Below are positions 26,015 through 55,642 of a DNA stretch of 64,000 nt, piece after piece (within the stretch, counting starts at the first letter, position 1; the number at the start of each line of letters is the position of its first letter). The translations under genes and the position numbers were made by a program. Under the pieces are notes generated by a model. It saw nothing but the letters and a program-made list of their open reading frames with translations, did not search any database and was not told the DNA's origin. This stretch comes from Eledone cirrhosa (Eukaryota): NCBI GenBank assembly GCA_964016885.1, contig OZ024742.1, positions 255,998,001 through 256,062,000 of the forward strand. The letters run 5' to 3'.

Positions 26015-28410
26015 TTAGCTGTATACTTTCTGAAATGTTTTATGGAATTTATGCAAGCAGATAGAAAACAAGTCAGTGCGTCTATTTATTATAGAATCTA
26101 GATTAGAGATAATGGTAAATTTTTCATTTAGGCAGAGATTGCAGATTTTAGATAGAGAACTGTTCAAGTATGAGGACGCGGAAGAAACCTTCTTCCAAAA
26201 GATGGTATATTTAATGTTTTTGTCTTTCAAGGACCATATGAGTTCTGAGAGAGCCGTGTTGGTTCTTTTAAGTTTGTATTTAAAAGATGAATGATGATTA
26301 TAGAGACGAGCTTTAAAAGAGGTGGAACTGGAGCCAAAATAGGTTAAGGAATTGGTGTCAGTTATAACTTTGCATTCATAAATTAAGTTTTTATCAAGAC
26401 AATGGTTGTTGAGAGGACATATATTTTTAATAGGGCAATTGCAATTGCAATTAGAGAGATTGTTAATGAGTGACCTAGTGTTATCTATAGAAGGAATTGG
26501 ATTGGAGAAGTTGTTTGCGATAGGAATAATAGTTTCTTGATTTAGAGTTGGATTATGAACATTTAGCGAAGTTGTTTGACGTTGTATTTGGGTTTGCAGA
26601 AATTAGCCTAGGGTTTACAATGACGTCGGGAGTACTATTACTATTATTATGAAATTCAGTGTTGGAAGGAAGAGATTTAGTATTTAGTATTTTATTGTTG
26701 TGTTTAGAGATAATGTTGGAAATATTGGAGGATGTAGAATAAGAAAATGTTATGGTGGGTTTGTTAAATATTTTACTATAGATATGTGAGGGAGGGAAGC
26801 ATTTATTTAAGGCACTAAAGAATAATTTAGGAATATTGTTATTAATAGAGATGGAGAAAGGAGCATTATACCAGATTATGTTTTTGTATCTAGGTCTTTT
26901 ATTAAAATTATTGGAATGATCATGAATAATTATTCTACTGTAAGTTCTTCTAGAATTTGTTTCTTTACTATATTTGATTTTATCAGGATAGCCGGCTTTA
27001 GAAAGTGCGTTATTATAGTAATTGGCGTTAGCATCAAAGATGTTTTTATTAGAAGATAGGTTAGATATTCTTTTTCCAATATTACTAACTATAGCATTCT
27101 TGATATTAGTAGGATGGTTAGATTTAAATTTAACATAATTTAGGTTCTCATTGTTTTTATGGTAAGGGTAATATAGGCCAGTGTCAAGATTAAGAGATAC
27201 ATCCAATAAATTAGCTAGTTTGATACTGATATCAAATTCAATTTTTAGGTTATGTTGGTTAAAGAGATTACGTATATTGTTCTTAATAATATTAAGGTTA
27301 ACTATATTGCAATTTAAGATAGTAAAGAGTCCATCGTCACGATAAATTCCACCGCGAAGTTGAGGAATTTTCCGACTCAAAGAGTTCAAAATAAAGATAC
27401 CAATTAAATCAGTCAATTGGGATGAATCGGATGCTCCCATTGTGATGTCGAAGTTGTTAGAGGTATCGGCTCTGGTCCAATATTCGTTGTTGAACTCTAG
27501 GATGGTTTTACGTGCGGTGAGAATGATGTGAAGTTCATCTGTGGTGATGTCAGAATATTTAAGTGCGAAAGATAGAGCATTATTGAGAAGTAAAGGCGAA
27601 ATGGAGGAATAGTAGCTGGCAATATCAAATTGAATAAATTTCAGTTTGTTTTTATTATTCAATTTGTTGAACCAGCTAATCACTTCAGAAGTACCAAACC
27701 ATAAATTTAGGTTCAAAGAAGAGCAATTAGAACGAACCTGTGGGATAATTCTATCCAAGATGGATTTACTAACAACCCCCAGATCAGATTTAGAGGGGGC
27801 GATTAATCTAACAGGTAGTTCAGTGCGAAAATTGTTTTTGTGATCCTTGATATTTATCCTCGGAGTTCTTGGGAGGAATGGTTCGGTCTTTTTTTCAATG
27901 CCAAGTTTTGACATAATCTCAGAGGCTTCAAGGTTTATGTATTCTAAATTTTCATGGTTGGTTTTACGATATTTTTTCCTAAGTTCCTTTAGGATAAGGT
28001 TTTTATAATTATCCTTGGAAATACCATATAAGTTATTGGTTTTGTCAGAGTGGACTAAAACATTTTTTGAGGAATTTAGGTTAGAAATTGTGTTCTTGAG
28101 ATTTACAAGGTGCTCTTGTCCTTTGAAAGGGTATCTCTTGAATTTAAGATTTTTTTATTATTTTAGTTAACTCTTCCTCGAATTGCACTAGATTTTTGTT
28201 GGAAGGAGGATTTCTTCTAGAATTAAATAGATGTACGAGGAAGTTATGTTCTTTGGTATAGAGGTTCCCTTTTAGGCTCTGGTCATAGAAATAGGCTGTC
28301 CATCTAAGTCTTCTTACGAAGGAGTCAGTTTTTTCAATTAGAAGTTTGGTGAATTCAGATTTACCAGGTATAGGAATGTCTTTAGTTGAATTGGTTATGT
28401 TGTAACTGAA
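26015..28410 (-). pseudogene. PLE polyprotein (RT + GIY-YIG), frameshifted
   Basis: N-terminus STKDIPIP...FVRRLRW, RT motifs A/B'/C, EN with CNCP..CPL, LIYEC..YFGS..FK.R..H, CNLCLNEK, C.H. Confidence 0.88.
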
Positions 28411-28664
28411 ATATCTTTCTCAGTTATAAAAACTATCTCTCTCTCTCTATCACCCATCTCTCCTCCTATCTCATCCTTCCTCATTATACTCCTCCCTCTC
28501 CACCTTCACTCTCATCTCCTCCTCTTTTTTTCATCCTTTCCAACCCCACTCTAAATAAAATATTTTTCCCAATATCACACATCAATCTAAAACTACTTCT
28601 CATATGTTGATTTAAAACTGAACTATCCACAAGTGTTTTTTGGCCTTCATATCATGTCCTCCTG

Positions 28665-28731
28665 TTTTATCTGATGAAAACACAAATATTATTGCATGAT
28701 GATATTTGTTTTTGAAATGCGCATAATAAAA
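28665..28731 (+). ncRNA. Type-I hammerhead in the inverted pseudo-LTR (AUA site)
   Basis: TTTTAT-CTGATGA-AAACACAAATATTATTGCATGATGATATTTGTTTTT-GAAA-TGCGCA-TA-ATAAAA, with palindromic ATGCGCAT. Confidence 0.8.
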
Positions 28732-28913
28732 TACATGGAACTCCTTTAACCATCTTTTGTTCTTATGTATTATGTATACTCCAGTCCTACAAACTGTAGA
28801 GTGCTTCTTATCCGATATCTGCATTGCTTTATTGTACTACAATAAAACTCACCTCCTACATTATATATATATATATATATATACATATATAAATATACAC
28901 ACATATCGATATG

Positions 28914-32700: not shown

Positions 32701-32790
32701 CAGAACCTATATTGCCAATTATCTCTTTTATATTGTTCTGGAACATCATTGAATTGGGGAAAAAAAATAAAAAGTAATAATAATAGAAAC

Positions 32791-35700
32791 AATAATAATA
32801 ATAATAATAATGATTTAATTTATTAACCACAAGGGCCGACATGTAGGGGACAATAAAAAGACAGAGACAGTGGGGTTTACAATAAGGTCGAGTAAAAGTG
32901 CACAATGGCAAGACTAATTTAACAGTGAAGATATAAAAATATAAAATAAACTATGCATAAAGACAACAAAATAAATTCCCTGAAAGGGGTGGACGACTCT
33001 AGGTGAATCGGGTACCCAACCAATCCTGAACCATCCTGCGCTTCTAGAGCACCCCTCTCCTCAAGTTAGCTAGCCTATAGGCGCATGGTCAGAGAAGGCC
33101 CATTCACACGAGCCATTCTCGCAACATTCATCCACCTTTTAGCAAATGTACTGGGGAGCACCACTTCTCTCTCCACTCTAACCTTCCTTTCCAGGTGAAA
33201 CTTGAAGAAGTTGACGAGGGATTGGCCGAAGAGAAAAGTGTCTCTCTTCAGTACTTTTAACCTGGTCCACAATATAACCTCTTTCGCAACTGCCACCAGA
33301 CAGAGGAAAATGTCCTGCTCATCCTGACCTAAGGAAGGCGGTGGATCGATCTTCACTATGGTCTCGGCCGATAGGTGGATTCGTTCCACACGCGACAGTA
33401 GCTGTTCGACATAACTCCATAAGTCAGTAATGCACGGACATTGGACAAGTGCGTGCAGAACGGTTTCGTCGTTCTGTGCGCATCTTGGGCAGGTCAGTCT
33501 GACAGCACTTCCGTGCTTGTAGAGTTTATCCCGAATCGGCAGTTTTTCCCCGGTAGCACTGCCAAGCGAGGGATTTCTGGAAATTGTCCATTGTCGCCGG
33601 CTCGAAAGTCCTCCGGAACAGACTGGTCAGTTCGACTTCGTCGAGGCCCAAAGCTTCTACGAGTGCGTCATCGCACTTGCCCACCACTAATCCTCTATAG
33701 AACTCGAGAGTGGAAGTTGCACTGATCGCATTGCCCGCTTGGTAGAGGGCAGTGAGTGCCTGGCAACATTCCAGTTGCCAGTCACCCAGTCTCGGTCTCT
33801 TCTTGACCCAGTACTGCAGCTCAGTCAAAGAAATGAGCTGCGGAAAGGCCCGTCTGATAAACTGCGGTCACACCTATTCTGCGTTGAGGCAGAATATCTG
33901 GAGATGTCGCAGCCTCAACGCATGTCTGTGCATCACTAGCCACGGCATGCCCAGCCCTCCGCGTAGAGGGTGCTGGCAGCAGTTGGACCGCCTCACCAAT
34001 GGAACTTGTCCCATCCACAAGAATTTGAAGATGAGCCGTTCCAACTTGACGAGGCGCGGACGGGGGCAAGGCACGACCGTCAGGCGGTAATAGATGACGG
34101 ACGCGATGTACGCATTCGCCACCTCCGCGCGACCTTTCAGTGATAGCTTCATCCCAGCCCATTTTTGGGTGAGACTGGCTACTCTGCTCGTTACCTCGTC
34201 CCAATTCTTTTCCACCTGGAGGTCTGGTCCGAACCAAACCCCTAGCAACTTTACCGGTCAGTCGGTCCAGCGCCACACGACGCTGTTGGACGGCATGGGC
34301 TTGCCTTTCCAGGTTCCGAGCTGCAAGCCCACCGACTTGTCCGGGTTAAGCTTGGCTCCTGTCAACCTTTCATTATCTTTCAATAAGGTGCCGACCACCT
34401 CGATTTCTGAGGTGTTCGACACCATCAAGGTGATGCCGCCCGCATAAGCCGACACCGCCCTTCTACGCCCCGGTTCGAGCGGGTTGCCCTGCAACAGCTC
34501 CAGCTTGCGCAGTAAAGCCTCGAGAGTCAATACGTACAGAAGGGAAGAGAGAGAGCACCCTTGACGGACCGATCGGAAGAGCAGAAATGGTTCCAAGAGG
34601 TGGCCATTAACCTTCACCATCGAGCGTATGCCGCTGTGCATTGCAGCGATCCACCTTCTGTAGACAGGGCCGAAGCCAGCTGCTTTGAGGACAGAATCCA
34701 GATATCGATGGTCGAACCTATCGAATGTTTTCGATTGATCTAAATTGATCAGTGCCCCACCGAAGCCAGGTTTACACCCTACGCTCTCTATGATGTATCG
34801 CATGAGGTGGAGATTGTCGTGTATGGACCTGGTTGGGATTGCGCAAGTTTGCGCCTCCCCAACCAAATCCTCGACGACAAGCGCCAATCTCTTTGCTAAT
34901 ACCATGGCCAAAATCTTAAACTTTGTGTTGGGCAGAGTTATGGGCCTGAAGTTGTCTAATGTATCCCCCTTGTTCTCGTCTTTCCTCATCAGCGTCACCA
35001 CTCCCCTACTCACAGAACTGGTAATACTCCCATTCTGCTGCCAGTTGCAGTAGAGTGCTTCGAGGCGATCGGAGAACAAGTCTGGCATATTTACGTAAAG
35101 CTCGTAGGGCAGGCCATCCAAACCGGGTGATTTGCGCCTCAGGCAGCCGACAAGGGCGTCCTGAATTTCGGCTGAAGTAATCGGCCTTTCGCAGCGCTCA
35201 GCGTCGACCGTCGAGATGCGCGGCAAGCCATCAAGGTAGGGACTGAAATCCGCTACTCTCTCTGACTCGCCACTCTCCCCGAACAACCGAGAAAAGTGCT
35301 GGCGAAAGGCCTCACACATCCGCTTGGAATCGCTTATCTCGTTTTCGTCTCGGCTCGCCAAAGACCGAATTGTGGTTTTATTACCACATGCCCTTCCGAC
35401 ACTCGGGCCCATCGAACAGCTCTGACAATGCAATCTTCGTGTTTCGCATTGAAGAAATGGTCTAATGCCATTCTTTCCGCTGGCACGTCAGTTGCAATGC
35501 CACTACAAATAGCCTCGTCTAACTCATCTACCAGCTCTCCCTCCTTTCTATTTTTCTCTAACGCTAGTTCTTTGCCGAACTCTATCGAATTTACTCTAAT
35601 CTCTCTTTTGATAGCCCCCCCCCACCATCTGTTATTGATGATCCCCCCTGTCAACTTTTGCTTAACTAAATTGTTGACTCGGTCCCTGTAAGCCTTACGT

Positions 35701-37221
35701 GCCGGAACTGACATGTTCAGCTTCCAGTAACCCGGTCCTAACCTACGCGTTTTATCTAGGTCGACCATACAGATCACAAATTTGTGATCTGAATAGGCGA
35801 CCGTTTTAAAAAGTGGGCAGCCTACACTATTTCTATCTATTTTCCTAATGAAGATCCTGTCTATATTACGATCTAGATGACCCCATTCGGTTGGTCCATG
35901 TGTATACTGGCACATTGGGGAAATCTAGTCGATACTTGTCAGACAGTTGGAACTGGCTGAGTAGGTGCTTGAGGCTTTTGCACTCCCCGCTCCTATCGGC
36001 TACTCCCATACAATCCAAGCGTGCGTCTAAGATGCCTTCCAGTCCCCCGCTAACAGTAAAGGACGAGACGTACCCAGAAAGGTCTTCAGGTGCCTAAAGA
36101 AGTCCGGTCGTCCGGCCACTGTAGGGGCGTAGACAGCCAGCAGTCTAAAGGCACCACCTTCGCTACTGCTCACATCCAAGACCACCAACTTACCGTCCGG
36201 GTTCCGGAAGATCGACCTTACCTCGAGATCCATTTCTTTGCTAAACAGCACTGCCACCCACCATCATTCCCGGCCTGCTAACAGATGCAAAGATCTGATA
36301 GTCGTCGAAAATGGGGGCTAGTGCGCGCGTGTCGGAAATTCTGGTCTCACTGACGGCAATCACATCCATTTCCAGCGACTTGAGGTCGTTGAGCAGGCGA
36401 CCCTGCTTCCAGGGTGATCCCAGACCGCAAACATTTAAACATCCTACTCTTAATATGGCCATGTTGGTAAGCTAAGAGAGAGAGGGAAAGTTTACTTACC
36501 TCCCGGGGTCTTGTAAAGGTTGGGAACCCTTTTAAAAGTCTCGATGTGGGTTTCACATTCGGGTTCCCACGTCTTGAGGAAAACTCTCTCTTCAAATTTC
36601 TTTGAAGGAATTGAGTGACATTCGGACCAGAAGCAAATCTTCTGGCACGCAAAATGTGCTCATTTAAAAAATCTCCCCCTCTGTTTGAATGTCCTCGCTT
36701 CGTGCTAAGAGTGCCATCAGTTTATCGTTGGCCCTTCTGACAAGCACGAAGTTTTTAACATTTTGTCGGTGTGGTTTTATTTGTTTTCGTTTTGGTGACT
36801 GTGGTGGTGATGGTTTTGGTGGTGTTGTTTCGGGTATGTCTGTGTTTGTTGTAAGTGTGGTGTCTGCAATTTCAGCTATTTGTGTGTTTATTTGTACTTG
36901 TGTTTGTTTAGGTTGTTTGCGTTTCGGGGATTGTGGGGGTGGTGTCGATGTTGCTGTTGGTCCTGATGTTATTGGGGAAGTGTTTGCGTTAGTGGTGTCT
37001 GTATTTTCTGTTGCGTATGTTTTTGTGTTTTGTTGGGCCTTTTTTTTTTTGGTGAGGTTTCTCTGTTATTTGCACTTTTTGGATTTCCTTCATCTTCGCT
37101 GCTGGAAGACAAAGGGTTTGTGGATATGAGTGTCTCTCTGTCTGTGTGTGCGTTTATTGCTTTGTCTATGTGTATACTTTTTGGGGGGAGGTGTAGGGGG
37201 AGTGGGAGAGCATTCTTCGTT
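32791..37221 (-). mobile_element. Tx1-lineage LINE copy D (partial ORF1, complete but frameshifted ORF2, 3' UTR, (ATT)n tail)
   Basis: MAILRVGCLNVCGL (36462), GPGYWKLN, KSPGLDGLPYELY, SVRQGCSLS, SAYAGG (catalytic DD lost). Tail at 32791-32811. The 5' truncation abuts an AAT-rich tract. Confidence 0.93.
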
Positions 37222-37329
37222 TTAATAATAATACACTATTAATAATTATTTATAATTTAATAATAATAATTATTTATTATTTAATAATAATAATAATAGT
37301 AATAATAATAATACACTATTAATAATTAT

Positions 37330-39310
37330 CTACATTTAACCACTTTCAAATGGCATTCAAAGAGGCAGCAGCCGACACCATCTCTTTAAAACCAAGGTTA
37401 AAAAACGAAAACCCTGGGAAACAGAGAGGATACGCCAAAAGCGCAAAGAGTTGCGAAAAGCTGCAGAATTGAAAGACACTCAACGATCTCCAGAAAACTT
37501 TAGTAACTTCAATGCTGCTTGTACAGCACTGAAAAGTGAGTATGAAATTGAGCAAGCCGAATACATACAGAAAAAGATCAATCATATCTCGAGTACTGTC
37601 ATCAATAAGAAGTATGCTGAAGCCTGGAAAACTGTCAATGAAATTAGTGGCAGAAAAAGTAGATTCAGAGCCAAACTGATAGCCTCCACCCAACATGAAC
37701 GTTTAAAACTGTGGCAACAACATTTTCAGAGCCTACTTGGCAAAGCACCAAAGATCATCGAAGAAGAAATAATACTCGTTTTTACAGAGGAACACCAAAT
37801 ACAGAAAGGTCCTTTCACTATGGAGGAACTACAGAAAGCAGTGAAAAGTATTGGTAACGGAAAAGCGTGTGGACTCGACGAGATCCCAGCTGAAGTGTGG
37901 AAGATACCTGAATTTCACCCAATCCTACTAGAGTTGTGTAATGGTGTCTATAATCAAGACCCCATAGACAAATGAACTGAGGGATGTATACTTCCTTTTC
38001 CCAAAAAGGGCAATTTTGGAATGGCTAAAAACTATCGTGGCATAACACTAATGGCAATTGCCGCAAAGATATACACTCTCATGCTGTTTGACAGAATAAG
38101 ACGTGTCATTGACACCTTACTGAGAAAAAGCCAAAATGGCTTCCGCACCAACAGATCAACGTCAGGGCAAATACTTAATATTTGGCGTATCTTGGAAGGC
38201 GTAAAAGCCAAAAACCTCCCAGCAACTCGCCTGATTATTGATTTTTCAAAAGCATTCGATTCCATCCATCGTGGGATGAGAGAAATACTTCTACCCTACG
38301 GCTTGCCAAAGAATGCTATCATGATGTTATATAAAAACACCCGCGCAATAGTGCGCTCACCTGATGGAGATACCAAATTATTTGACATCATTGCAGGAGT
38401 ACTCCAAGGGGATACTCTTGCACCATATATTTTTATCATCTGCCTCGACTATGTATTGAGAAAAGCCCTGGACGAAAACTTAGAGCTTGGTTTAACTCTC
38501 ACAAAGCGAAAGTGTAGACGCCATGCAGCTCAGAAAATCAGCGATGCTGACTATGCGGATGATTTAGCGGTCCTCGCTGACTACTTTAAGGATGCAACAT
38601 CACTACTTCACAGCATCGAATCAGTTGCAAAGGAAATCGGACGCTATGTCAACGCAGGCAAAACAGAATATATTTGCCTGAACCAAGACTCCTCAGTTGG
38701 TATGCGAAGTCTAAACGGCGATATTATCAAGCAAGTTGACGACTTCAAATACCTGAGTAGCTATATCGCCTCCACAGAACATGATGTTAACATGAGACTG
38801 GGAAAAGCCTGGGGAGCATTGAATGCAATGGAAAAAATATGGAAATCAAACCTGCCCACCAAACTGAAAAGGAATTTCTTCAGAGCTGCTGTGGAATCTG
38901 TGCTTGTTTATGGCTCTATCACTTGGACGCTAACGTCGAAACTGGGGAAAAAGCTAGACGGGGCATACATACGTATGCTCCGTGCTGCTTTAAACGCGTC
39001 TTGGAGGGAACACCCAACAAATAAGGATCTCTATGGCAATATACCACCTATCAGCAGGTCAATACGTAGACAGAGACTCAGATTTGCTGGCCACTGTTGG
39101 CGCAGCAAGGAAGAAATAGCAGGTGATGTGTTGTTATGGAGTCCATCTCATGGAGCAAGAAACGCTGGTCGTCCCAAGAAGACATACGTCAAGCTACTTG
39201 AGGACGATACTGGATGCGTTGCGGAAGAACTGGCAAAAGCTATGAGAGACAGAGATGGATGGAGGAAACGTGTCATAGAAAGCCGAGAAAGCTCGACCTG
39301 ATGATGATGA
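37330..39310 (+). mobile_element. RTE-clade LINE, 5'-truncated, (TGA)n tail, possible 9-bp TSD AATAATTAT
   Basis: ORFs 37451-37975 and 38021-39301: KACGLDEIPAE, NYRGITL, DFSKAFDSI, GVLQGDTLAP, DYADD, RLRFAGHCWR, GRPK.TY. Ends GACC-TGATGATGATGA. Confidence 0.9.
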
Positions 39311-39709
39311 ATAATTATTAATTAATGCAATCGTGCAATGCCTGTGCGTGACGAATATTTTTAAAGTGAGGAAAGACTGTGCACTGAGCGACAGTAGCTA
39401 TAACCCGAAAAGAAGAAAAGATCAACTTCATCGGTAACTACTGAGCCGCAGGTTTTATGTCGGAGTTAACCCAGTTTCCTGAGATGCCTTCTCCTAGAAG
39501 AATGCCCTGACAAGAGATAGGGGTTCTTCACTCCCAGTGCGCGATCGGGCATCCAGCCCGATTACTTCTATGTCCCCGCGCAAAAAAAAAAAAAAAAACT
39601 CACTTATTGACACTTATACGTACGACGTACACACACGCGCACACCCATACATATGCGCGCACACACCAACACTCATACATACAAACAAACACGCACACGC
39701 TACTCACTT

Positions 39710-39787
<78 letters not shown>

Positions 39788-39894
39788 CCGTCATTATTGA
39801 TACATGATTACAAGATTATGTCAACCGTTGACTTTCAAGAGTCCGTATAGTTGAAGCCGTTCGTATTACAGTTCAGTATTATTATAATTGCTTT

Positions 39895-40030
39895 ACAGGA
39901 TCGAGCTATGGCTCTCCACGCTCTGAGCTCAAATCCCACCGAGGTCTACCTTGCCTTTCATCCTCACGGAGTCAACAAAAGAGAGCACCAGCAATGGGTT
40001 GGGCCAGTCGCTGGATCCGTGCTAAAAACA
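39895..40030 (+). mobile_element. tRNA-derived SINE fragment
   Basis: GAGCTCAAATCCCACCGAGGTCTACCTTGCCTTTCATCCTCACGGAGTCAACAAAA matches the family core. Confidence 0.65.
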
Positions 40031-40308
40031 GAAAAATTATTATTATTAAACTTGTTGTTTTCTTAAGGCCCGGTCGCTGGTGGTGGCAGGGGTCGCAGTT
40101 GATGTTGTTGTTGTGTTGTGTGCGTGTGTATGTGTGTTTTGTTATTTTGATTTTTTCTTTTTCTTTTATCGTTTGATGCCACTGTTGTTGTAAACCTTCA
40201 TTTCAATTCATTCTGAAGCTGTTGTTGCTGTAAACATTAGTGCCGGTGTTGTTGTAGATGTTGGGTTTGAAATCTGGTCGTTTGACTGAGTGATGTATAT
40301 ACACACAT

Positions 40309-40347
<39 letters not shown>

Positions 40348-40842
40348 CACACACACAAATTCAACACAGAGTAGAGAGTTTGACAAAAGGTCGGTGAATT
40401 TAGTCTAGATATGGTAATGACATGTGTAAATGTAAATGTGATGGTGGGGAGAGAGTGTAGACGTTATTGTGGTGGTGGAGGGCAGTGAGATGTATCTAGT
40501 TCATTTGTCAGTTTTCTTCTCTTTCCAAAATTTGAATTTTAGCCATGTTATATTGAGATGTAAGTAAATGTAAAATGTAAAATATAAGTAAGGATTGCTC
40601 TGGTAAAATATACGAAAATATTTGTGTAACTTCCACCAACTTCTGTCGTGACATTCCCGAGTCCAGTGACAAAAAGAATTGTTGTATTTTGAAGTTTCAG
40701 AATACAAAAATTAATTAAAAACTTACCCCACGAAAATACATACATACATACATATATACATACATACATATATATATACATACATATATACATACATATA
40801 TACATAAATATATATATACATATATACATATATACATACATA

Positions 40843-42450
40843 TGCCTCTCCTGGTCTTGATGGTGTTACGTACCTGCTTCTTAAACATGGTGGGTACTTC
40901 ATTCTGCACCAGTTATCACGCTTCTTCCAATTCTGTCTGAACAACGGTGCTACTCCAGAACAGTGGAAAACTGCCAGTGTCATTCCTCTGTTCAAAAAGG
41001 GTGACCGCACATCACATGTGAACTATCGTCCAGTCAGTCTTACTAGTTGCATCGCCAAACTGATGGAATCCTGTGCCAGAGAAACACTTTGGAATTTCTG
41101 GAGCTCTCACAGTCTTATCCGGCCCTCGCAATTTGGATTTATCCCCAACTCCAGCTGCTGTGATCAACTTATAGAGTTTCTTGAGGACATCACCCGGATC
41201 ACTGATGGCGGCTCATGGGTGGATGTTGTTTACCTTGACTTTGCGAAAGCCTTCAATTCTGTGCCACACAAAAGGGTTATGGCAAAACTCTCTGCAATGG
41301 GTGTGAAGGATGGTCTTTTTAACTGGTTGATGTCCTTAATTCTCAGTCAAAGAGAGGTAGTCCCGGTTCTGGGACAGCATTCCTCACGATATGAGATGTC
41401 ATCTGGTGTACCGCAGGGATCTGTTCTTGGCCCCCTTTTGTTTGTGGCATATATTAATGACATAGATGCCAACTTAAAGAATGCCACGGTACTAAAGTAC
41501 GCAGATGACATCAAGCTGTACCTTGAGATAAAAAGGATAGATCCTGAACACTATAGATCTTGCTTGCAGTCTGACCTGGACACAATGCAACAATGGATCT
41601 CAGACTGCCAACTCAAGCTAGCTGTGGACAAGTGCACCACCATGCATTTTGGGAGTAAAAACCCAGCGTCCACATACTCCCTCCACAGCACTAATATCAA
41701 GAAGTCTTCTTGTGACTGTGACCTAGGCATTACAGTCAGCAGCGATTTGCGTTGGACGAAGCACGTCTCTAACATTCTCAAGAGAGCCGAGGGTGTCTTA
41801 GCATCACTCAGCAAGACCTTTGTCAGCCGCTCTCCAGATATCTATTTAAGGCTGTACATCGCTATGGTGCGGCCACACTTAGAATTTGCATCACCAGTCT
41901 GGAATCCCTATCTTGCTCAGAACATTGACCGCCTGGAAACTGTTCAGAGACGTGCAACCAAGCGAATACCCTCCATCAGGCATCTACCATACTCTGAGCG
42001 CCTTGCTTCCCTGGGCATGGATACATTGAAGCTCCAACGCCTGGCAACTGACTTGATAAACACCCACAAAATTGTTAACCATCTTGCCAACAACTCTGAG
42101 TACCTTTTTTATTTCCATGTATCTAACACACGTGGACATGCCACCAAAGTCAGAAAACAGCACTGTTCCCATGATTTTCGGAAACATTTTTTCACGCTCA
42201 GAGTTGCTGAAGCATGGAACAAACTTCCTGCATTAGTTGTTAGCTGTCGAAACACTGCATCCTTTAAGGCCTCCATGCTTCCCGAGATCCGCCAACACTA
42301 CAGCTAATGTTCCCCCTCCATACACATACACACATGTATACCATGACTCATACACTATTCACTTCCGACATTTGTGTATTATTCCATGTACTATACATAC
42401 ACCTTTGACGAGTTGTAGTGCACCTGAGCACTTTACACAATAATTTCATT
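40843..42450 (+). mobile_element. CR1-group LINE, 5'-truncated, RT reading frame open, inserted in (TA/CA)n
   Basis: SPGLDG...WKTASVIPLFKKG, then ORF 41018-42307 NYRPVSLTS, YLDFAKAF, SGVPQGSVLGPLLF, KYADD, VRPHLEFASPVWNP, TRGH, FFT.RV..WNKLP. Confidence 0.92.
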
Positions 42451-42488
42451 AATATATATATATACATACATATATATATATATATACA

Positions 42489-42578
<90 letters not shown>

Positions 42579-42601
42579 CATACATATATATATATATATA
42601 C

Positions 42602-42638
<37 letters not shown>

Positions 42639-42676
42639 CATACATACATATATATATATATACATACATACATACA

Positions 42677-42756
<80 letters not shown>

Positions 42757-42856
42757 TATATACATACATGCATATATACATATATATATACATACATACA
42801 TGCATATATATATACACATACATACATATATACATATATATATATATACACATATA

Positions 42857-42926
<70 letters not shown>

Positions 42927-43050
42927 TATATACATATATATATACATACATGCATACATATATATATATACACATATATACATATATATATATATATACA
43001 TACATACCTACATATATACATATATATATATACACACATATATATATAGA

Positions 43051-43122
<72 letters not shown>

Positions 43123-43164
43123 CACATATATACATACATACATACATATATATACACACATATA

Positions 43165-43196
<32 letters not shown>

Positions 43197-43206
43197 GACA
43201 CATATA

Positions 43207-43258
<52 letters not shown>

Positions 43259-43293
43259 TATATACATATATACACATATATACATATAGATAT

Positions 43294-43354
<61 letters not shown>

Positions 43355-43411
43355 CACATATATACATATATATATATATACACATATATACATATATATA
43401 CACATATATAC

Positions 43412-43446
<35 letters not shown>

Positions 43447-43454
43447 TACATGTC

Positions 43455-46240
43455 CATAATTCTTTCTCAACAGAGGCTATGAACATAGTTACTAATGGAT
43501 ACTGCGAAGCAGTCACTGTATTCAGTCAAACCAACAACCTAATAGTAGTTGGGCTCTATAGGCCACCCCAAACGCCTCTACCATGCTTCAAGGAATGCCT
43601 CAACAGCCTAAAGTGTTTCATCCAAGAGTGTCACCCTGACAACATCTTAATGATGGGGGACTTCAACCTCCCCGGAGTTGACTGGTCCACAAACAGCCTG
43701 CCACCAGGTTCTTCTGCCTCAACCTCTGACAGGGAAGCAGTGGAATCGCTTCTTGCCTCCTTGGATGATTTCTTCCTGTCCCAACTGGTGCTCGAACCAA
43801 CGAGGTGCCACAAAAACGTCCTAGACTTAATTTTCAGCAATCACACTGACAATATCCACAATATTGCAGTGGAGAAAACTCTACTCTCTGATCATGACAT
43901 GGTTCTCTGTGATCTGAGATTCCACCGTCCAATATACAAACCCAATGTCATCTCTCCTGTCCGTCCGTTTGACGCTATGGATTTCCACAATGCAAACTGG
44001 GAAGCGATCAGTCATGATCTTGCACATGTCGACTGGTCCTTCACGCACACTCATACACCCACTAACATCAAAAAGTCCTGGCAGACATTTGTGGACACTG
44101 TTACAAACATATGTGCAAAAGACACCCCATTAAGAACTAGAAATAAATCTAAGAGCAGAATCCCTAAAAATAGAAAACGCTCATCAGGAAAATTAAGAGA
44201 ACTAACAAAAAAATCAACAAGCTGAAATATTGTCAGCAGCAACACATAAATTAGACTGCCATTTCATCACTAGAGATTAAAAAACATAACATCCAAAACA
44301 ATATGATGTCTATCATCAACAATCAGAGAAGAGCTGAAGAGGCCTTGTCCATTGAGAAGATCAAACTCAATCCCAAAGTGTTCTTTTCATTTGCAAAAAA
44401 ACACAAAATCACTGGCTCTACTGTTGGCCCTCTAATTGATGAAAATGGCACTCTTCAAGACAATGCTAAAACCATGGGTGAGATACTGCAGAAACAATAC
44501 TGCTCTGTTTTCAGTAATCTGGGCTGTATGGGCGATGTTACTCCCCATTACACCTTATCGGACATAACGTTTGGCGCCCCTGATGTCTTAGCGGCAATAA
44601 AGGAAATCAAGCATAATTCAGCAGTAGGTCCCGATAGGTTCCCTGCTTTTGTCTTGAAGGCCTGTCAATACCAACTTGCATCTCCTCTTGCCAATCTGTG
44701 GCGGAACTCACTGGATGCTGGATATGTGCCAGAAAACCTTCTATCCCAGTCTGTTGTCCCAGTTTTCATAAAAGGAAACAAATCCCTTGCCGTGAATTAC
44801 CGTCCAATCTCACTCACCTCTCATATCATTAAATTATTTGAGAGAGTGGTGAGATCGCGAATGACTCACTTCCTTGCGAGTAACAATATGTTGAACTCCA
44901 ACCAGCATGGATTCCGTAATGGAAGGGATTGTCTGACGCAACTACTGCATCACTTTGATAACATTTTGAGAGCCTTGGGAGAGGGTTCCAACACTGATGT
45001 TATCTACCTTGATTTCAGCAAGGCCTTTGACAGGGTTGATCACAATATTCTACTGAGAAAGCTGTCCAATATTGGTGTCACTGGAAAGCTGCTGCAGTGG
45101 ATCAAGAGCGTCCTGTCAAACAGAACCCAACATGTTTTAGTTGAAGGAGTCAAATCCAGCCCAGGCAAAGTCAGTAGTGGAGTCCCACAAGGCACTGTGT
45201 TGGGCCCACTTCTCTTCATCATCTATATTAATGACATCACTGACATCATCAAACACAGCAACATTAGAATTTTCGCTGAAGATTCCAAGCTCCAAAAGGT
45301 CATCAATGGCGTGGATGACCGGATAAGCCTTCAGTCAGACCTACTGGCTGTTACCCAATGGGCGGAAAAGAACAACATGTTACTGAACGAAGACAAATTC
45401 GAACTGATCCACTTTGGAAAAGAGGATGCTCTGAAACTCCCGTACTCCCTTCCCTCCGGTGAAACTCTCGTGGCATCTAACAACATCAGAGACTTGGGAG
45501 TAACCGTGGACAGCAACATAACCTGGGCCACGCATATAAGCCCCAAAGTTGACATGGCTCGCAGAATGTGTTTCTGGATCCTCAGAACCTTCCAGTCGAG
45601 AGATTCGCACACCATTATCCTTCTCTTCTCCACATTTGCCCGACCACACCTTGAATACTGTTGTCCACAGTGGCCTCCCCACACGAAACAAAGTATCATG
45701 AAACTTGAAGCTCCCCAAAGGGCAATCACGAAAAAGATAGATGGCTTGTCAGACCTTGACTACTGGGGTCGACTAGAAAAGCTGAAACTTTACTCACTCC
45801 AATGTCGCCGTGAGCGTTATATTATCTGCATGATGGGGAAAATGTTTCATCAGCACTGCCCAAATGATGTTGGCATCACCTTCAAAATACACCCAAGGCT
45901 TGGGCCCCGTGATATCTGTCCCAAACAAAAATCTAAATCGCAAACATAACAACAATACGGCACAATTATTTCACCTCAATTGGCCCTGCTCTCTTTAACA
46001 TCACACCAGGACACGTCAAAACAGAAACTGACCACACAAAATTCAAGAAGTCTTTGAACAAATTCCTCCAAGTAATCCCGGACAAACCAACCACACCCGG
46101 ATATGTCTCCGCAAACAGTAATTCTCTTCTCGAATGGGCCATGGTGCCCAAATTCTGAGTTGAAAGACTTCACCAAGTGGTGCTATTAAGTTATACATGG
46201 CCTGGGCCAATACTGGCCAAAACATTTCAAAGTTATTCAA
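43455..46240 (+). mobile_element. Second CR1-group LINE (APE + RT, frameshifted; catalytic motif FAED), inserted in (TA)n
   Basis: ORF 43479-44225 LYRPP, GDFNLP, PTR, LDLIF, SDH; ORF 44303-45949 NYRPISLTS, YLDFSKAFD, GVPQGTVLGP, FAEDSK, RPHLEYCC. Confidence 0.92.
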
Positions 46241-47047: not shown

Positions 47048-47081
47048 CATTATATATATATATATAAATATATATATATAG

Positions 47082-47872
47082 AGGGTTCAGAATTCTATTT
47101 CAAAGAAGGACAACGTTTTATAGTAAAACACAATTTCACATGCGCATCAGAAAATCTAATATATGCATTAACTTGCTCAGGTTGTCGAGAACAATACATA
47201 GGCCAGACTAAAAACACCCTCCGCCAACGCATGACTGTCCATAGATCCCAAATTAAAATACGGGAATACAGAAAAATACCACTGAGTGAACACATTGATA
47301 CTTGTGCCGCCCAAAATCATCCCTACATTAGAATCTTTCCCATCTGCAAATTTAAACATAATGCCAGCCACACCCAGCGCATCAGCAAGGAATCTCACTT
47401 TATTAACAAATACGGACCCCGTCTAAACACTTCTTCCTAAGACGAACCCACAACATACACACGTCAACATACATACCTACATTAGCATACATCCTACATA
47501 TATTTCTATCCACATATAAACACAATGACATACGTAAACACACATGTTCTATGGTGCAACACAAATACACACAAATTTGCATACCTTTTGATGTTTATAG
47601 ATATAAATCCGCCGACACACACACATACATATACGCACACATGCATTGCACACTGATGGGCACATACATATTTGTACACAAGTATTCCCATAGGGCAGGG
47701 CCTAATGGATTCCCCTTGCAGTACGTACAATTTGGACACTCACACACACTCACACTTCTCCGTATAAGACAAGAGCAGAACAAATATCTTTCAACATGTT
47801 AAAATATCCCCCACACACGTTCACACACATTCGTACTGACCGAATTTATTCCCTCTACCACGAACCACTCTG

Positions 47873-47928
<56 letters not shown>

Positions 47929-48310
47929 TTGTCTTAAAAGACTTATTTTTCAGTCATTACTCAATCAACCGAGACAAACCTACATTTGGCGCAAAATCAA
48001 TTTTTCACATTCACATGACCTCTACTGGCCAATCAAAATTGTTTTGACCACAAGAATTTTTTCATACATCTGGAGCCACTTTTTTTTACATAAAACAGGT
48101 AGAATTTCCAAAACTAATCAGATTAGAGCAAACATCACGAGCGTTCTATCTCAGAATTATTTTTGAAAAGCATTAGAAATGCGTAACCGGTAAAAAGTTA
48201 AAACTAAAACTGAATACTAACCAATACTTATTACTAATTTATACTTATTCCTAATTAAACTATTTTTCACTGGGAAATATTTGTCACCATTTTCTTTTCC
48301 TTTTACTAAT
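47082..48310 (+). mobile_element. 5'-truncated PLE: GIY-YIG C-terminus plus 3' region
   Basis: 47082-47440 translates ...[41 protein letters not shown]...SEHIDTC...[17 protein letters not shown]. 48100-48310 is homologous to 61670-61870. Confidence 0.8.
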
Positions 48311-48369
48311 ATATCACAACTCATGATTTGCACCTCTATTTTTTAAAATATATATATACACATATATAT

Positions 48370-49425: not shown

Positions 49426-49512
<87 letters not shown>

Positions 49513-49530
49513 TAGATATATAGATATATA

Positions 49531-49646
49531 TAAGTTGAAAAAAAATGAAAACGAAATTTCATTTCTCACTCTTAGTATGGTACTTACTTAAATGTAAGTA
49601 TGTATGTATACGTGCATACATATATGTATACAGACGTACAGTAGCA

Positions 49647-49723
<77 letters not shown>

Positions 49724-50159
49724 GCATACAGATACAAATACATATATGCACGCATCAGTTTAGCCGACGTTTAATATAACGTCGCTTTGTTCGTTTGTTT
49801 GTCAACAAACCGTACAGCCTGAATTTATGCCATACGGTGTTAAGGCAAGCACGTCACGTTTTTGTTCAACACTGACACAGGAACGATGTATTAGTTTCAA
49901 GCTTGTTAGCTATCATCAGCACCGTTTACCTATCTGCCAGATAGTTGAACGTTCGAAAGTATATACTTTCCTTATGAAAATTAACGGCTGAGCAGCCTAA
50001 TTTGCATATTGAGTGAGTTAAATCGGTCAGGCATACCGAAAACGATAAGTTGAAAAAAAATGAAAACGAAATTTCATTTCTCACACTTAGTATGGCACTT
50101 ACTTAAATGTAAGTATGTATGTATAGGTACATACATATATGTATACAGACGTACAGTAG

Positions 50160-50222
<63 letters not shown>

Positions 50223-50660
50223 GCATACAGGTACACATACATATATGCACGCATCAGTTTAGCCGACGTTTATTATAACGTCGCTTTTTTCGTTTGTTTG
50301 TCAACAAACCGTACAGCCCGAATTTATGCCATACGGTGTTAAGGCAACCACGTCACCTTTTTGTTCAACACTGACACAGGAACGATGTACTAGTTTCAAG
50401 CTTGTTAGCTATCATCAGCACCGTTTACCCATCTGCCAGATAGTTGAACGTTCGAAAATATATACTTTCCTCATGAAAATTAACGGCTGAGCAGCCTAAT
50501 TTGCATATTGAGTGAGTTAAATCGGTCAGGCATACCGAAAACGATAATTTGAAAAAAAATGAAAACGAAATTTCATTTCTCACTCTTAGTATGGCACTTA
50601 CTTAAATGTAAGTATGTATGTATACGTACATACATATATGTATACAGACGTACAGTAGCA

Positions 50661-50735
<75 letters not shown>

Positions 50736-51099
50736 GCATACAGGTACACATACATATATGCACGCATCAGTTTAGCCGACGTTTATTATAACGTCGCTTT
50801 GTTCGTTTGTTTGTCAACAAACCGAACAGCCTGAATTTATGGCATACGGTGTTAAGGCAACCACGTCACCTTTTGTTCAACACTGACACAGGATCGATGT
50901 ACTAGTTTCAAGCTTGTTAGCTATCATCAGCACCGTTTACCCATCTGCCAGATAGTTCAACGTTCGAAAGTATATACTTTCCTTATGAAAATTAACGGCT
51001 CAGCAGCCTAATTTGCATATTGAGTCAGTTAAATCGGTCAGGCATACCGAAAACGATAAGTTGAAAAATATGTGCATATATGTATGCGTACTTGTATGC

Positions 51100-51172
<73 letters not shown>

Positions 51173-51624
51173 TGCTACTGTACGTCTGTATACATATATG
51201 TATGTACGTATACATACTTACATTTAAGTAAGTGCCATACTAAGAGTGAGAAATGAAATTTCGTATTCATTTTTTTTCAACTTATCGTTTTCGGTATGCC
51301 TGACCGATTTAACTCACTCAATATGCAAATTAGGCTGCTCAGCCGTTAATTTTCATAATGAAAGTATATACTTTCGAACGTTCAACTATCTGGCAGATGT
51401 GTAAACGGTGCTGATGATAGCTAACAAGCTTGAAACTAGTACATCGTTCCTGTGTCAGTGTTGAACAAAAAGGTGACGTGGTTGCCTTAACACCGTATGG
51501 CATAAATTCAGGTTGTTCGGTTTGTTGACAAACAATCGAACAAAGCGACGTTATAATAAACGTCGGCTAAACTGATGCGTGCATATATGTATGCGTACCT
51601 GTATGCATATGTGTACCTGTATGC

Positions 51625-51675
<51 letters not shown>

Positions 51676-51727
51676 TGCTACTGTACGTCTGTATACATAT
51701 ATGTATGTACGTATACATACATACTTA

Positions 51728-51730
<3 letters not shown>
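49531..51730. mobile_element. Tandem + inverted array of the ~500-bp non-coding hammerhead unit (3 head-to-tail units on minus, then ~1.3 units inverted)
   Basis: Unit boundaries at 49531, 50046, 50545 and 51057 (periods 515/499/512). Inversion at ~51068. HHRs at 49883-49925(-), 50382-50424(-), 50894-50936(-) and 51405-51447(+). Confidence 0.9.
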
Positions 51731-51777
<47 letters not shown>

Positions 51778-51936
51778 AATAAGTATGTTTTGAAACAGTG
51801 AGCAGGTTTGAAATTAGCTTTCACCGTATTTTTGACTAAAGGAATTTTAGCCTGATATACATATATATATATATGTATATATACACATATATACATATAT
51901 ATATATATGCACATATATACATATATATATATATAT

Positions 51937-52253: not shown

Positions 52254-52326
<73 letters not shown>

Positions 52327-52334
52327 TAATATAT

Positions 52335-54300
52335 AAGATCAAAAGATGGTTAAAAGAGTTCCATGTATTTTATATTATGCGTATTACAAAAACAAATATC
52401 ATCATGCGATAACATTTGCGTTTTCGTCAGAAAAAATAGGGAGACATGATATGAAGGTTAAAAAACACTTGTGATTAGTGCAGTTTTAAATCAACATATG
52501 AAAAGTAGTTTTAGATTGATGTGTGATATTGGGAAATACATTGAGGGGGGGGGGGGAGGTTGAAAAAGAGGAAGAGATGAGATTAAAAAGTGGAGGGGGA
52601 GGAGTATAATGAGGAAGGATGAGATAGGAGTAGAGATGGGTGATAGAGAGAGAGAGATAGCTTTTATAACTGAGAAAAATATATTGTTTTACATAGAGAG
52701 GTTAAAAAACCGGTGGAAGATAATATATAAATTAAAAGAATTTGAAAATTAATGAAGAGAAAAATTTTAGAATAATGTTAAATTAAGCTTTGTATATTGA
52801 AGGGTTTAATAATATGTGCGATGAAAAGAAATTGTTAATATGTATTAAGAATAATATTTAAGGGTTTAATAATATGTGCGATGGAAAGAAATTGTTGATA
52901 TGTATTATTAAAATATATAAAAATATAGCAATAGTAATGTAATTAAGGATATATTGTGAAAAGAAGTAGAAGAGTGGATGAATAAGTGTAATATGTATAA
53001 GTTAGATGAGAATGAAAGGGAGAAAAAACTAATGAATTTAGGATGAATAATCTAACGTCAAAAAAATGTTTATGTTTACGAAAGATTTTTCAAGGTGACA
53101 TTATAAAGTAAGGATATATTGTGCTAAGTAATAATGAGAATTGAGAAGTATCTAGGAAGAAAAGGTACGGATTAGAGGTTAGAAATTAAAATAAAAATAA
53201 AAAAAAGAAAAGAAAAAAGGAAAAAAGAAAGAAAGGGAATTGATGAAGAGGAGTGATATAGAATGAGTAACTAGTATTATATAATGTATAATAAATAACA
53301 TTGAAATAAGGTAGAAATATGTGTATATTTTTAAAGAACTATATATGTATATATATATATATGTGTGCCTTTGAGAAAAGGATTTTAAATTGATAAAGTA
53401 TTAGATATTAGCTGTATACTGTATGGAATGTTCTGTGGAATTTATGCAAGCAGAAAGAAAATAAGTCAGTGCGTGTATTTATTATAGAATCTAAATTAGA
53501 CATAATGGTAAATTTTTCACATAAACAGTGATTGTATGTCTTGGATAGAGAAACATTCAAGTATGGAGAAGCAGAACAAACCTTCTTCCAAGAGATGTTA
53601 TAGTTAATATTTTTGTCTTTCAAGGACCATGAGTTCTGAGAGTGTCATGTTGGTTCTTTTAAGTTGGTATTTAAAAGACGAATGATGATTGTAAAGACGA
53701 GCTTTAAAGGAGGTGGAAGTGGAGCCAAAATAGGTAAAGGAATTGGTGTAAGTTATAACTTTACATTCGTAGATTAAGTTTTTTTCAAGACAATGGTTGT
53801 TGAGAGGACATTTATTTTTAACAGGGCAATTACAATTGCGATTAGAGAAATTAACAGAGTTATTAAACAAGTGACCTAGTGTTATCTATAGAAGGAATTG
53901 GAATGGAGAAGTTATTTACGATAGGAATAATAGTTTCTTGATTTAGAATGGGATTAAGAACATTTAACGAAGTTGCGTTTGACGTTGTATTTGTGTTTGC
54001 AGAAATTAGCCTAGAGTTAACAATGACGTTGGGAGTACTATTACTATTATTATGATATTCAGTGTTGGAAGGAAGAAATTTAGTATTTAGTATTTTATTA
54101 TTGTGTTTAGAGATAATGTTGGAGATGTTGGAGTAGGTCGAATAGGACAATTTTATAGTGTATTTGATAAATATTTTACTGTAGATATGTGAGGGAGGGA
54201 AGCATTTATTTAAGGCAGTAAAGAATAATTTAGGAATATTATTATTAATAGAGATAGAGAAAGGAGCATTATACCTGATTATGTTTTTGTATCTAGCTCT
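52335..54300 (-). mobile_element. Second, diverged and 5'-truncated copy of the PLE at 24900-28770
   Basis: ORFs 53863-54303, 53604-53870 and 53408-53623 align with 26015-26900. The 3' pseudo-LTR is homologous to 24900-25300, and its HHR (~52370-52435) has GAAA->GTAA. Confidence 0.9.
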
Positions 54301-54536: not shown

Positions 54537-55360
54537 AGAATTAGTACATCTACCAACATATGTGTACTTATGTACACTCATGCTAGCAAATATATAAGTT
54601 ATCTCTTAGTATCTTTGTGGTTCTATGCAGGTGAATGCAGAACAATTATATGAAAGACGTAAAATAAGAAAATTTTAAAAATTAAAAATTAACTTACTTA
54701 CTAAAATTTTCACTCCAACTAATTAGTTTCTGTAATGGGATAAATATAGTTACATAATATATATAACTATAGAGAATTCATTACGTCATCAGGGAGTCTA
54801 TTCTCAGCTAAGTTCCCAGGCAATGGTCGGACGCTAGGAACCCATATAAAAATAATAATTCAGTAGATGGAAAGAAGCTAGCGTGGACTAACTTCCGGAG
54901 CATTGAAAAATGTTCACTGTCTCTGGTCAGTGGCAGATTCTAAAGAATCAATCACGTGACACCGAGGTTAATCAGATAGGAGCAGCGGGGTGGTATTATG
55001 ACAAGAGCCTACTACTACCATGAAACAGCAGTAAATTTTGGCCAGTTTTGCTCAACAAATAATTTGTAGATAAATATAGAGAATTTAATACATCTAACAA
55101 TATGGGTTCCTAGTGTCCGCGCATTGCCTGGGAACTTAGCTGAGAATAGACTCCCTGATGACGTAATGAATTCTCTATAGTTATATATATTATGTAACTA
55201 TATTTATCCCATTACAGAAACTAATTAGTTGGAGTGAAAATGTTAGTAAGTTAATTTTTAATTTTTAAAATTTTCTTATTTTACGACTTTCATATAATTG
55301 TTCTGCATTCACCTGCATAGAACCACATAGGAACTAAGACAACTTATATATTTGCTAGCA
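54537..55360. mobile_element. PLE-type terminus with an inverted duplicate (arms ~54580-54847 / ~55100-55360), each arm with a hammerhead
   Basis: The arms are reverse complements. HHRs at 54712-54797(-) and 55150-55235(+). Homologous to 58280-58748. Confidence 0.85.
55150..55235 (+). ncRNA. Type-I hammerhead with extended, branched helix II
   Basis: ACTCC-CTGATGA-C-GTAATG-[loop with ATAGTTA..TAACTAT hairpin]-CATTAC-A-GAAA-CTAATTAG-TT-GGAGT. Confidence 0.8.
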
Positions 55361-55369
55361 TAGACATAC

Positions 55370-55642
55370 AATGTAACGGGAGGAAACAATAGCACCACTG
55401 ACGAAGTTGGAGATCTGCAACGAAAGAACTTTGATAAACTATATATATGTGTTTGTGTCTATATTGTATCTGTATTATTTTTGACCTGTGGTCAGTCAAT
55501 GGTAACATTGAGGACCTAATAAATTAGATTACCGATATAAAAGACACAGAAGCGAAAAGCGAAAACCAACCAAACAGTGAGTGTGTTCTGTTATTGATTC
55601 TGGCAATATTACACAAATATGACCCTCCCCAATTATAACAAT
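55370..55642 (+). mobile_element. Solo PLE-like 3' terminus with a hammerhead (55393-55436)
   Basis: CTGACGA-A-GTTG-GAGATCTG-CAAC-GAAA-GAAC-TT. Ends TGACCCTCCCAATTATAACAAT then (TA)n. Homologous to 20335-20615. Confidence 0.7.

Follow-up and report, generated by a model that had tools for sequence, protein, structure and literature searches.

How animal retrozymes move is an open question, PLEs having been named as just a strong candidate (main text of PMC7229834), and it is posed again by an array of hammerhead-bearing repeats in a 64-kb stretch of Eledone cirrhosa DNA (henceforth referred to as the window), in which no host gene was evident. The array (49530..51730) consists of three head-to-tail units and a head-to-head inverted arm, and the whole is a two-armed insertion in a (TA)n tract. 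In the tandem part (49530-51068) TRF reported a period of 499 with 3.0 copies and 94% matches, unit starts at 49530, 50045, 50544 and 51056 give lengths of 515, 499 and 512 bp, and the inverted arm (51069-51730) measures 662 bp or ~1.3 units, which confirms the arrangement described in an earlier note on this DNA. The hammerhead core is read from the minus strand in each tandem unit (at 49919, 50418 and 50930) but from the plus strand in the inverted arm (at 51411), and the two arms accordingly lie head-to-head with their 5' ends at the junction. Arm 1 (49530..51068, minus strand), made up of the three tandem units plus 13 nt, ends at the long (L) 3' end, ..CAACTTAT followed by ATAT, and arm 2 (51069..51730, plus strand, 1.3 units) ends at the short (S) 3' end, ..CTTACA followed by CATATA. 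The ~60 nt that separate the S and L ends form a 'tail' (49530..49590, minus strand) found at only this end of the insertion. The target is a (TA)n/(GA)n microsatellite on the left (49428..49529) and (TA)n on the right (51731..51781), and further (TA)n runs lie inside the array (50665..50728; also 49651-49716, 50166-50217, 51105-51168 and 51634-51671). The longest ATG ORF of a doubled unit has 72 aa, in keeping with the earlier claim that no ORF is present, no tRNA was found in the unit and its GC content is 0.30; judged by these ORF, GC and tRNA searches the unit is, as retrozymes are, non-coding, free of LTR-type ends and below 50% GC. Each window unit differs at 5-7 nt of 346 (~1.7%) from an array consensus that is identical to a unit elsewhere, and the window copy is thus slightly aged. 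A few variants are common to one unit per arm, often the one nearest the inversion centre (L090, L091 and window 50544-51600), possibly through gene conversion between the inverted arms. An independent one-armed insertion of the same family with an L end (19120..19728, plus strand; predicted cut after 19382) is ~7% diverged from the array and sits in the (TA)n flanking a two-armed PLE_A element (14700-19080).

The type I hammerhead motif is intact in the inverted arm (51405..51447, plus strand; predicted cut after 51441) and in unit 2 (50382..50424, minus strand; after 50388). In unit 3 (50894..50936, minus strand; after 50900) the outer helix I pair is mismatched (CATCGA), and in unit 1 (49883..49925, minus strand; after 49889) CTAA replaces CTAG, so that the helix III palindrome is lost and the self-duplex energy is +1.8 versus -6.8 kcal/mol for the intact palindrome. 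The core is therefore present in all four units and helix III intact in three of them, and the motif that the earlier note had quoted for every unit is exact in two of the four. With helices I, II and III of 6-7, 4 and 2 bp, the window hammerhead resembles, by the definitions in PMC4209133, the canonical type I form of invertebrates more closely than the 'minimal' form of PLEs, and the earlier label 'minimal' was dropped. In an Rfam search all core positions align to HH9 (RF02275), here with helix III cut to 2 bp and a 2-nt loop, yet the score of a window unit (18.8 bits, E=0.031) lies below the gathering score of 52, as does that of a sister family introduced below (37.7 bits, E=2e-8); the scan was run on a narrow stretch, (TA)n-driven miRNA matches having dominated a scan of 11 kb. 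In all window units a U.U mismatch occupies the base of helix II, where a G-C pair is usual. This replacement of the highly conserved G10.1-C11.1 pair counts against the predicted cleavage, and the same U.U is found in the axolotl HHR_Amex2, which does cleave, efficiently as a dimer (PMC7229834). Activation as a dimer via a palindromic helix III has been described, the hammerheads of metazoan PLEs being weakly active in vitro (PMC4209133), and only one of nine predicted Xenopus retrozyme dimers was cleaved (10.64898/2026.07.22.740005).

In an alignment of eight sequences both partners vary in six of the 14 base pairs of helices I-II, and the catalytic core is invariant except at N7; the hammerhead helices pair at 89% versus 22-43% for slid controls, this covariation having been read from a structure drawn by hand and representing just 2-3 lineages. 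How well the hammerhead is conserved column by column across loci was set aside, because most loci had been chosen by an exact core match. The circular fold predicted for the unit is 66-68% paired, with z-scores of -10.4 to -11.4 against 40 shuffles and the same branched architecture in both the window and sister families; the self-complementary (UA)n run lengthens the tip of one long predicted hairpin and boosts the z-scores of the window family.

The exact 31-nt core occurs 10,718 times in the 3.0-Gb genome and a degenerate, near-exact core 25,666 times, the controls (reversed for the exact core) giving 0 in each case, so that the motif is not there by chance. The copy-number search proposed in the earlier note accordingly revealed a dispersed high-copy family (henceforth family 1), of which the window array is one insertion. 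An older subfamily has units of ~422-430 bp, and a sister family, spotted in a flank, has units of 466-468 bp that can be aligned over the whole unit at ~63% identity and carry the canonical G-C pair at the base of helix II; the hammerhead helices are kept between the two families by compensatory changes despite ~37% divergence. Sister cores number ~7,900 in two variants (2,603 and 5,317 matches), the second pattern being loose, with 98 of 100 matches listed representing one variant. Among contigs of four sequencing runs, those of one contained family 1 at great depth, another had two such contigs and the other two had none, a result uninformative about expression. The internal (TA)n is short in the older subfamily and absent from the sister family, and the idea that it is a captured target was rejected on these grounds.

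With a period of 499 and 10,718-25,666 cores, family 1 resembles known retrozymes in size and number, its unit lying slightly above the 150-450 bp of PMC7229834 and inside the 51-972 bp of 10.64898/2026.07.22.740005. Like the non-LTR retrozymes of coral, mussel and axolotl (PMC7229834), it is built of non-coding units in tandem, each with a single type I hammerhead, and has a short palindromic helix III, low GC, a strongly self-paired predicted circle and thousands of copies in a genome that also holds PLEs. It differs from the retrozymes described there in its unit of 422-515 bp versus ~170-400 nt, in its expanding internal (TA)n and strict (TA)n targeting and in its head-to-head two-armed insertions with a one-sided tail; furthermore, circles have been observed in those animals, whereas those proposed here are predicted from sequence. 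On these features and on the insertion anatomy described below, we are confident that family 1 is a non-autonomous element of the non-LTR-retrozyme type, and the earlier suggestion of a retrozyme-like or non-autonomous PLE system was supported. The element is less novel than first claimed, since the class has already been described (PMC7229834) and an origin from PLEs argued (10.64898/2026.07.22.740005), and what is added is mechanistic.

We mapped 81 family-1 loci, a non-random sample made up of the best matches plus consecutive ones from the first ~80 Mb of contig C1. Their 3' ends (in the sense of the ribozyme) fell at two sites, S (..CTTACA) and L (..CAACTTA), which are separated by ~60 nt, and all but three of 130 such ends (127) continued into (TA)n versus 19% of random window positions; target-site duplications are unreadable within (TA)n. 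The 5' ends were dispersed over the unit, one of 112 lying within 8 nt of the cleavage site. At 53 head-to-head junctions an L end was combined with an S end in 42 cases, with another L in none and S with S in none, one end being unclassifiable in the remaining 11. This excess of L+S (42/42 classifiable junctions) has p=2e-13 against a 50:50 expectation, with one S call (A014) doubtful. The window array likewise ends at L in its long arm and at S in its short arm. Similar results were obtained for the sister family (40 loci), where 23 of 26 two-armed copies were L+S, none were LL or SS and three were unclassifiable, and where S and L lie at positions homologous to those of family 1; the older subfamily displayed the same pattern when judged by eye. 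A Hydra-type PLE of the window, PLE_B, has S and L ends of its own, and all ten of its head-to-head pairs were L+S (20 loci, read by hand), bringing the one-long-one-short rule to 75 of 75 classifiable two-armed insertions in three element families. The S arm was the longer in 15 of 42 family-1 insertions. Since either arm may be longer, in both families, neither is simply a fold-back copy of the other, and we rejected the idea that the second arm arose by fold-back. One sister copy (L143:1197-1800) lies not in (TA)n but in the (CAT)n tract of a different repeat, which suggests that insertion requires an AT/TA step and not pure (TA)n.

The two fixed 3' ends, used one of each in two-armed insertions, are the most informative feature of the family. 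A tail at one end and an inverted 5' copy are hallmarks of PLEs (10.1101/2021.04.23.441226; PMC3846280), and in the available text of PMC11167929 the tail is the interval between two internal RT start sites, while the protein, modelled as a dimer, nicks and extends both target strands. The insertion anatomy here (fixed ends, one-sided tail, inverted arm) therefore points strongly to a PLE acting in trans, as the earlier note had proposed, and we consider mobilisation by a PLE very probable. It fits two reverse transcriptases that share one RNA, probably circular, and each start at a different internal site, and a simultaneous twin start at L and S is, in our view, somewhat better than an even chance. 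The likeness to EN+ PLEs (Poseidon PAc, PMC11167929; Hydra and Naiad clades, 10.1101/2021.04.23.441226) extends to partial tandems, 5' truncation, the inverted 5' arm, the one-end tail, two internal RT start sites and a hammerhead upstream of them, and (TA)n targets are common to Hydra-clade PLEs and family 1. In contrast to these elements, an RT/EN ORF is absent and the whole element is one repeat unit, the tail measures ~60-70 nt rather than 30-40, and both arms may comprise 10 or more units.

Sequence variation bears on the template from which the arms were copied. The median distance between units was 0.9% within an arm, 1.2% across arms and 3.9% between loci, and in 9 of 30 arrays with two arms the one arm and the other were fixed for the same rare variant, versus 0.3% of random pairs. 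With two indel-prone blocks masked and one mixed locus left out, 25 arrays contained 175 singleton variants versus 16 shared by a subset of units, nine of the latter crossing arms, probably by conversion. Just 85 of 143 units had their nearest neighbour within their own locus, because young arrays are near-identical between loci. One sister insertion consists of 20 units with 0 variants in arms of 3.2 and 6.1 kb, another of 12+12 pieces with identical arm consensuses, and the consensuses of sister arrays differ mutually by 2-24 nt. Among the longest arrays (18-40 units), three of the sister family displayed periodic shared variants, which indicate later local duplication. The low distances within insertions, the shared rare variants and the star-like variation together imply that both arms were copied from one haplotype, repeatedly across the cut site. 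A circle is the simplest explanation of such single-haplotype multimeric arms, and we think a circular template likely; a linear cleaved monomer was rejected as template, since the cut site, which the arms traverse repeatedly, shows no accumulation of 5' ends. Unequal crossover has been suggested to amplify retrozyme arrays locally (10.64898/2026.07.22.740005), and the present data indicate that short arrays have several units from the moment of insertion.

The window contains at least three PLE families whose ends run into (TA)n. PLE_B (24858..28860, minus strand; a second copy of the family at 52310-54300, minus strand) is a candidate helper family separate from the retrozyme, and its motifs (DKT, CxCx5C and a GIY-YIG core from which the second Cys is absent) make it Hydra-type, clade labels having been taken from the motifs given in Craig 2021. 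This family has its own hammerhead (ATGCGCAT helix III), a ~95-nt tail and many open ~820-aa frames among 63,606 first-look candidates genome-wide, a figure that includes related families; several more diverged Hydra-type families (35-60% aa identity) lie in flanks. PLE_A is two-armed and head-to-head (14700-19080), with a degenerate hammerhead near 18810-18860, and PLE_C is a 5'-truncated copy with a GIY-YIG fragment (47081-48345, plus strand), whose family has many near-identical 784-aa open frames and two 3' ends ~38 nt apart; inspection of the 3' region of PLE_C revealed no hammerhead. From their linkers we read PLE_A and PLE_C as 'Neptune-like'; Pfam left five PLE fragments unrecognised. 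Two PLE families with many open ~780-820-aa frames are thus present in the same genome as the retrozyme.

We found no homology of the unit to the 3' regions of four PLE families, and an apparent similarity of both retrozyme families to the 3' region of PLE_C (z 6.2 and 4.8) proved to be a (TA)n artefact, a second copy giving ordinary scores. The unit is joined directly and in sense to Hydra-type ORFs at three loci (L012, L082 and L028) and in the opposite order at one (L085). Among 35 free 5' ends there were also direct joins to a (CAT)n-tailed repeat, a palindromic repeat and other DNA, as target deletion beside older (TA)n residents would give, and the Hydra-type chimeras, which at first suggested template switching and hence the helper, were no longer taken as decisive because unrelated repeats are joined directly too. 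The end motifs of the unit are nearer to the ends of the Hydra-type family (CTTA, C[CT]TACA) than to the A-rich ends of PLE_A, a likeness that is only suggestive, and we lean, at about even odds, towards a Hydra-type PLE as helper.

Overall, we regard family 1 as a high-copy non-coding hammerhead repeat that is probably copied into (TA)n by a PLE enzyme in trans from a predicted ~0.5-kb RNA circle. In the cycle that we propose, read-through transcription of an array would yield multimers in which adjacent hammerheads pair via the ACUAGU palindrome and cut after GUA, the monomers being ligated into circles as in the coral, mussel and axolotl retrozymes. A dimer of the PLE RT-endonuclease would bind the highly paired RNA and nick both strands of a (TA)n tract; the (TA)n target is observed here and the chemistry would be that of the anole PLE in vitro. 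Each nicked strand would then prime cDNA at one fixed internal site, one at L and one at S, ~60 nt apart, of which the fixed ends and the one-of-each rule are observed and simultaneous priming is our reading. Each RT would pass the hammerhead site for a variable number of rounds before the two cDNAs are joined head-to-head, a step based on the variable 5' ends, multimeric arms and single haplotype observed and on a presumed circular template. One-armed copies would be those in which just one cDNA survives, and long arrays would grow afterwards by local duplication too. In such 'twin rolling-circle' retrotransposition the subunits of the PLE dimer, with one nicked strand each, would start together on one ribozyme-made circle, a scheme for and against which we see the evidence as balanced. 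If true, it would explain together why PLEs leave a tail, why the arms are inverted head-to-head and how retrozyme arrays arise, and the one-long-one-short rule would be obligatory in vivo, despite the finding with the anole PLE in vitro that the start site is no different between strands (PMC11167929). PLE RT copying of circles into tandem cDNA has been proposed before, circles having been demonstrated in coral, mussel and axolotl (PMC7229834).

A twin-start PLE insertion could also do without a circle, if the template were an uncleaved linear multimer transcribed from a young homogeneous array and the hammerhead were slow, protein-dependent or incidental. Unprocessed RNA was indeed the dominant substrate of the anole PLE, and hammerhead mutants inserted normally (PMC11167929); homogeneous sister arrays of 20-40 units could act as donors, and the absence of 5' ends at the cut site fits a linear template equally well. 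We nevertheless consider this explanation unlikely, since family-1 arrays are star-like (175 versus 16), whereas transcripts of aged arrays would pass on unit-specific variants, and since variants shared across arms are off matching unit positions. Without a circle, moreover, daughters would never be longer than their donor, the hammerhead helices have been kept by compensatory change across the divergence of the two families, and other animal retrozymes accumulate as circles (PMC7229834).

Far less probable is an origin in cis, in which an autonomous PLE that has so far escaped detection would have the units as its pseudo-LTR and would amplify them as short products truncated at the 5' end. 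Such an origin would agree with the insertion anatomy, which is that of PLEs, with the three direct sense joins to Hydra-type ORFs, and with the observation that 24 of 57 Xenopus retrozyme families match Repbase elements at their termini, nearly all of them PLEs (10.64898/2026.07.22.740005). However, 5'-ward every unit runs into another unit and not into an ORF, up to 31+ units, and the three ORF joins interrupt the ORF, each at a different point of both ORF and unit. The terminal repeats and hammerheads of PLE_A and PLE_B are different ones, and the four PLE 3' regions are without homology to the unit. Hammerheads that share the palindrome but have a longer helix II were also sought, with 126 matches but no ORF-linked family in the 30 loci opened, and no consistent junction of the unit as pLTR with an RT + GIY-YIG ORF was found in 81 + 40 + 28 loci. 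Hence the finding that the earlier note had named as removing the novelty, a unit present only as the pLTR of a PLE, did not emerge: no copy examined was the pLTR of an ORF. We likewise hold it very improbable that the array is a DNA-level repeat (Helentron/DINE-like, fold-back or a satellite arisen by unequal crossover) that merely holds a hammerhead-like motif. The array does have hairpins and an internal microsatellite, as DINE/HINE elements typically do, and the longest sister arrays show the periodic shared variants typical of local duplication. Yet both termini are fixed in Helentron/DINE-like and MITE/fold-back elements, whereas here only the 3' ends are, the 5' ends and inversion junctions differing between loci and varying across the whole unit, which largely refutes a DNA-level origin. 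The one-L-one-S rule, moreover, is common to an autonomous PLE, the hammerhead pairs covary and the short arrays are star-like.

Copying by a PLE from a circle, as preferred here, rests on a different kind of evidence from that used previously. Li, Clavereau & Pollet 2026 argued from co-occurrence and pLTR homology that non-LTR retrozymes derive from PLE pLTRs, with evidence on the life cycle limited in the available text (10.64898/2026.07.22.740005); here no pLTR homologue was found among four PLE 3' regions and the evidence is the insertion signature, so that retrozymes are tied to PLE enzymes by insertion anatomy instead of co-occurrence. The words 'inverted', 'tail' and 'microsatellite' are absent from the main text of PMC7229834 and 'tail' from that of 10.64898/2026.07.22.740005, inverted arms in retrozymes are described in neither, and our literature search, with Repbase/Dfam and most subscription papers outside it, found no account of the family or of retrozyme tails or inverted arms. 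Two young families with >30,000 cores combine the PLE tail signature, a PLE target and single-template multimeric arms, and this unusually clean genomic record makes the insertion mechanism of retrozymes and PLEs directly testable. The system offers a small defined RNA, two predicted RT start sites and candidate helpers with open frames in the same genome, and its reconstitution could probe whether a PLE mobilises it in trans, whether circles serve as templates and what the PLE tail means. For bench tests the sister family is better suited than family 1. Very young two-armed sister arrays of 20-40 units lie at C1:5738094-5752747 (L296-L297), C1:30831610-30840869 (L298-L299) and C1:56387338-56398022 (L300-L301).

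Elsewhere in the window, 1-11300 and 29280-45950 contain decayed LINE fragments, which from their motifs we take to be L1/Tx1-like, RTE-like and CR1/L2-like. Two small self-inverted repeats (11991-12382 and 54540-55640) with hammerhead-like cores (12189 plus strand, 12182 minus strand and 55398 plus strand) are probably pLTR-only two-armed remnants of other PLE families.
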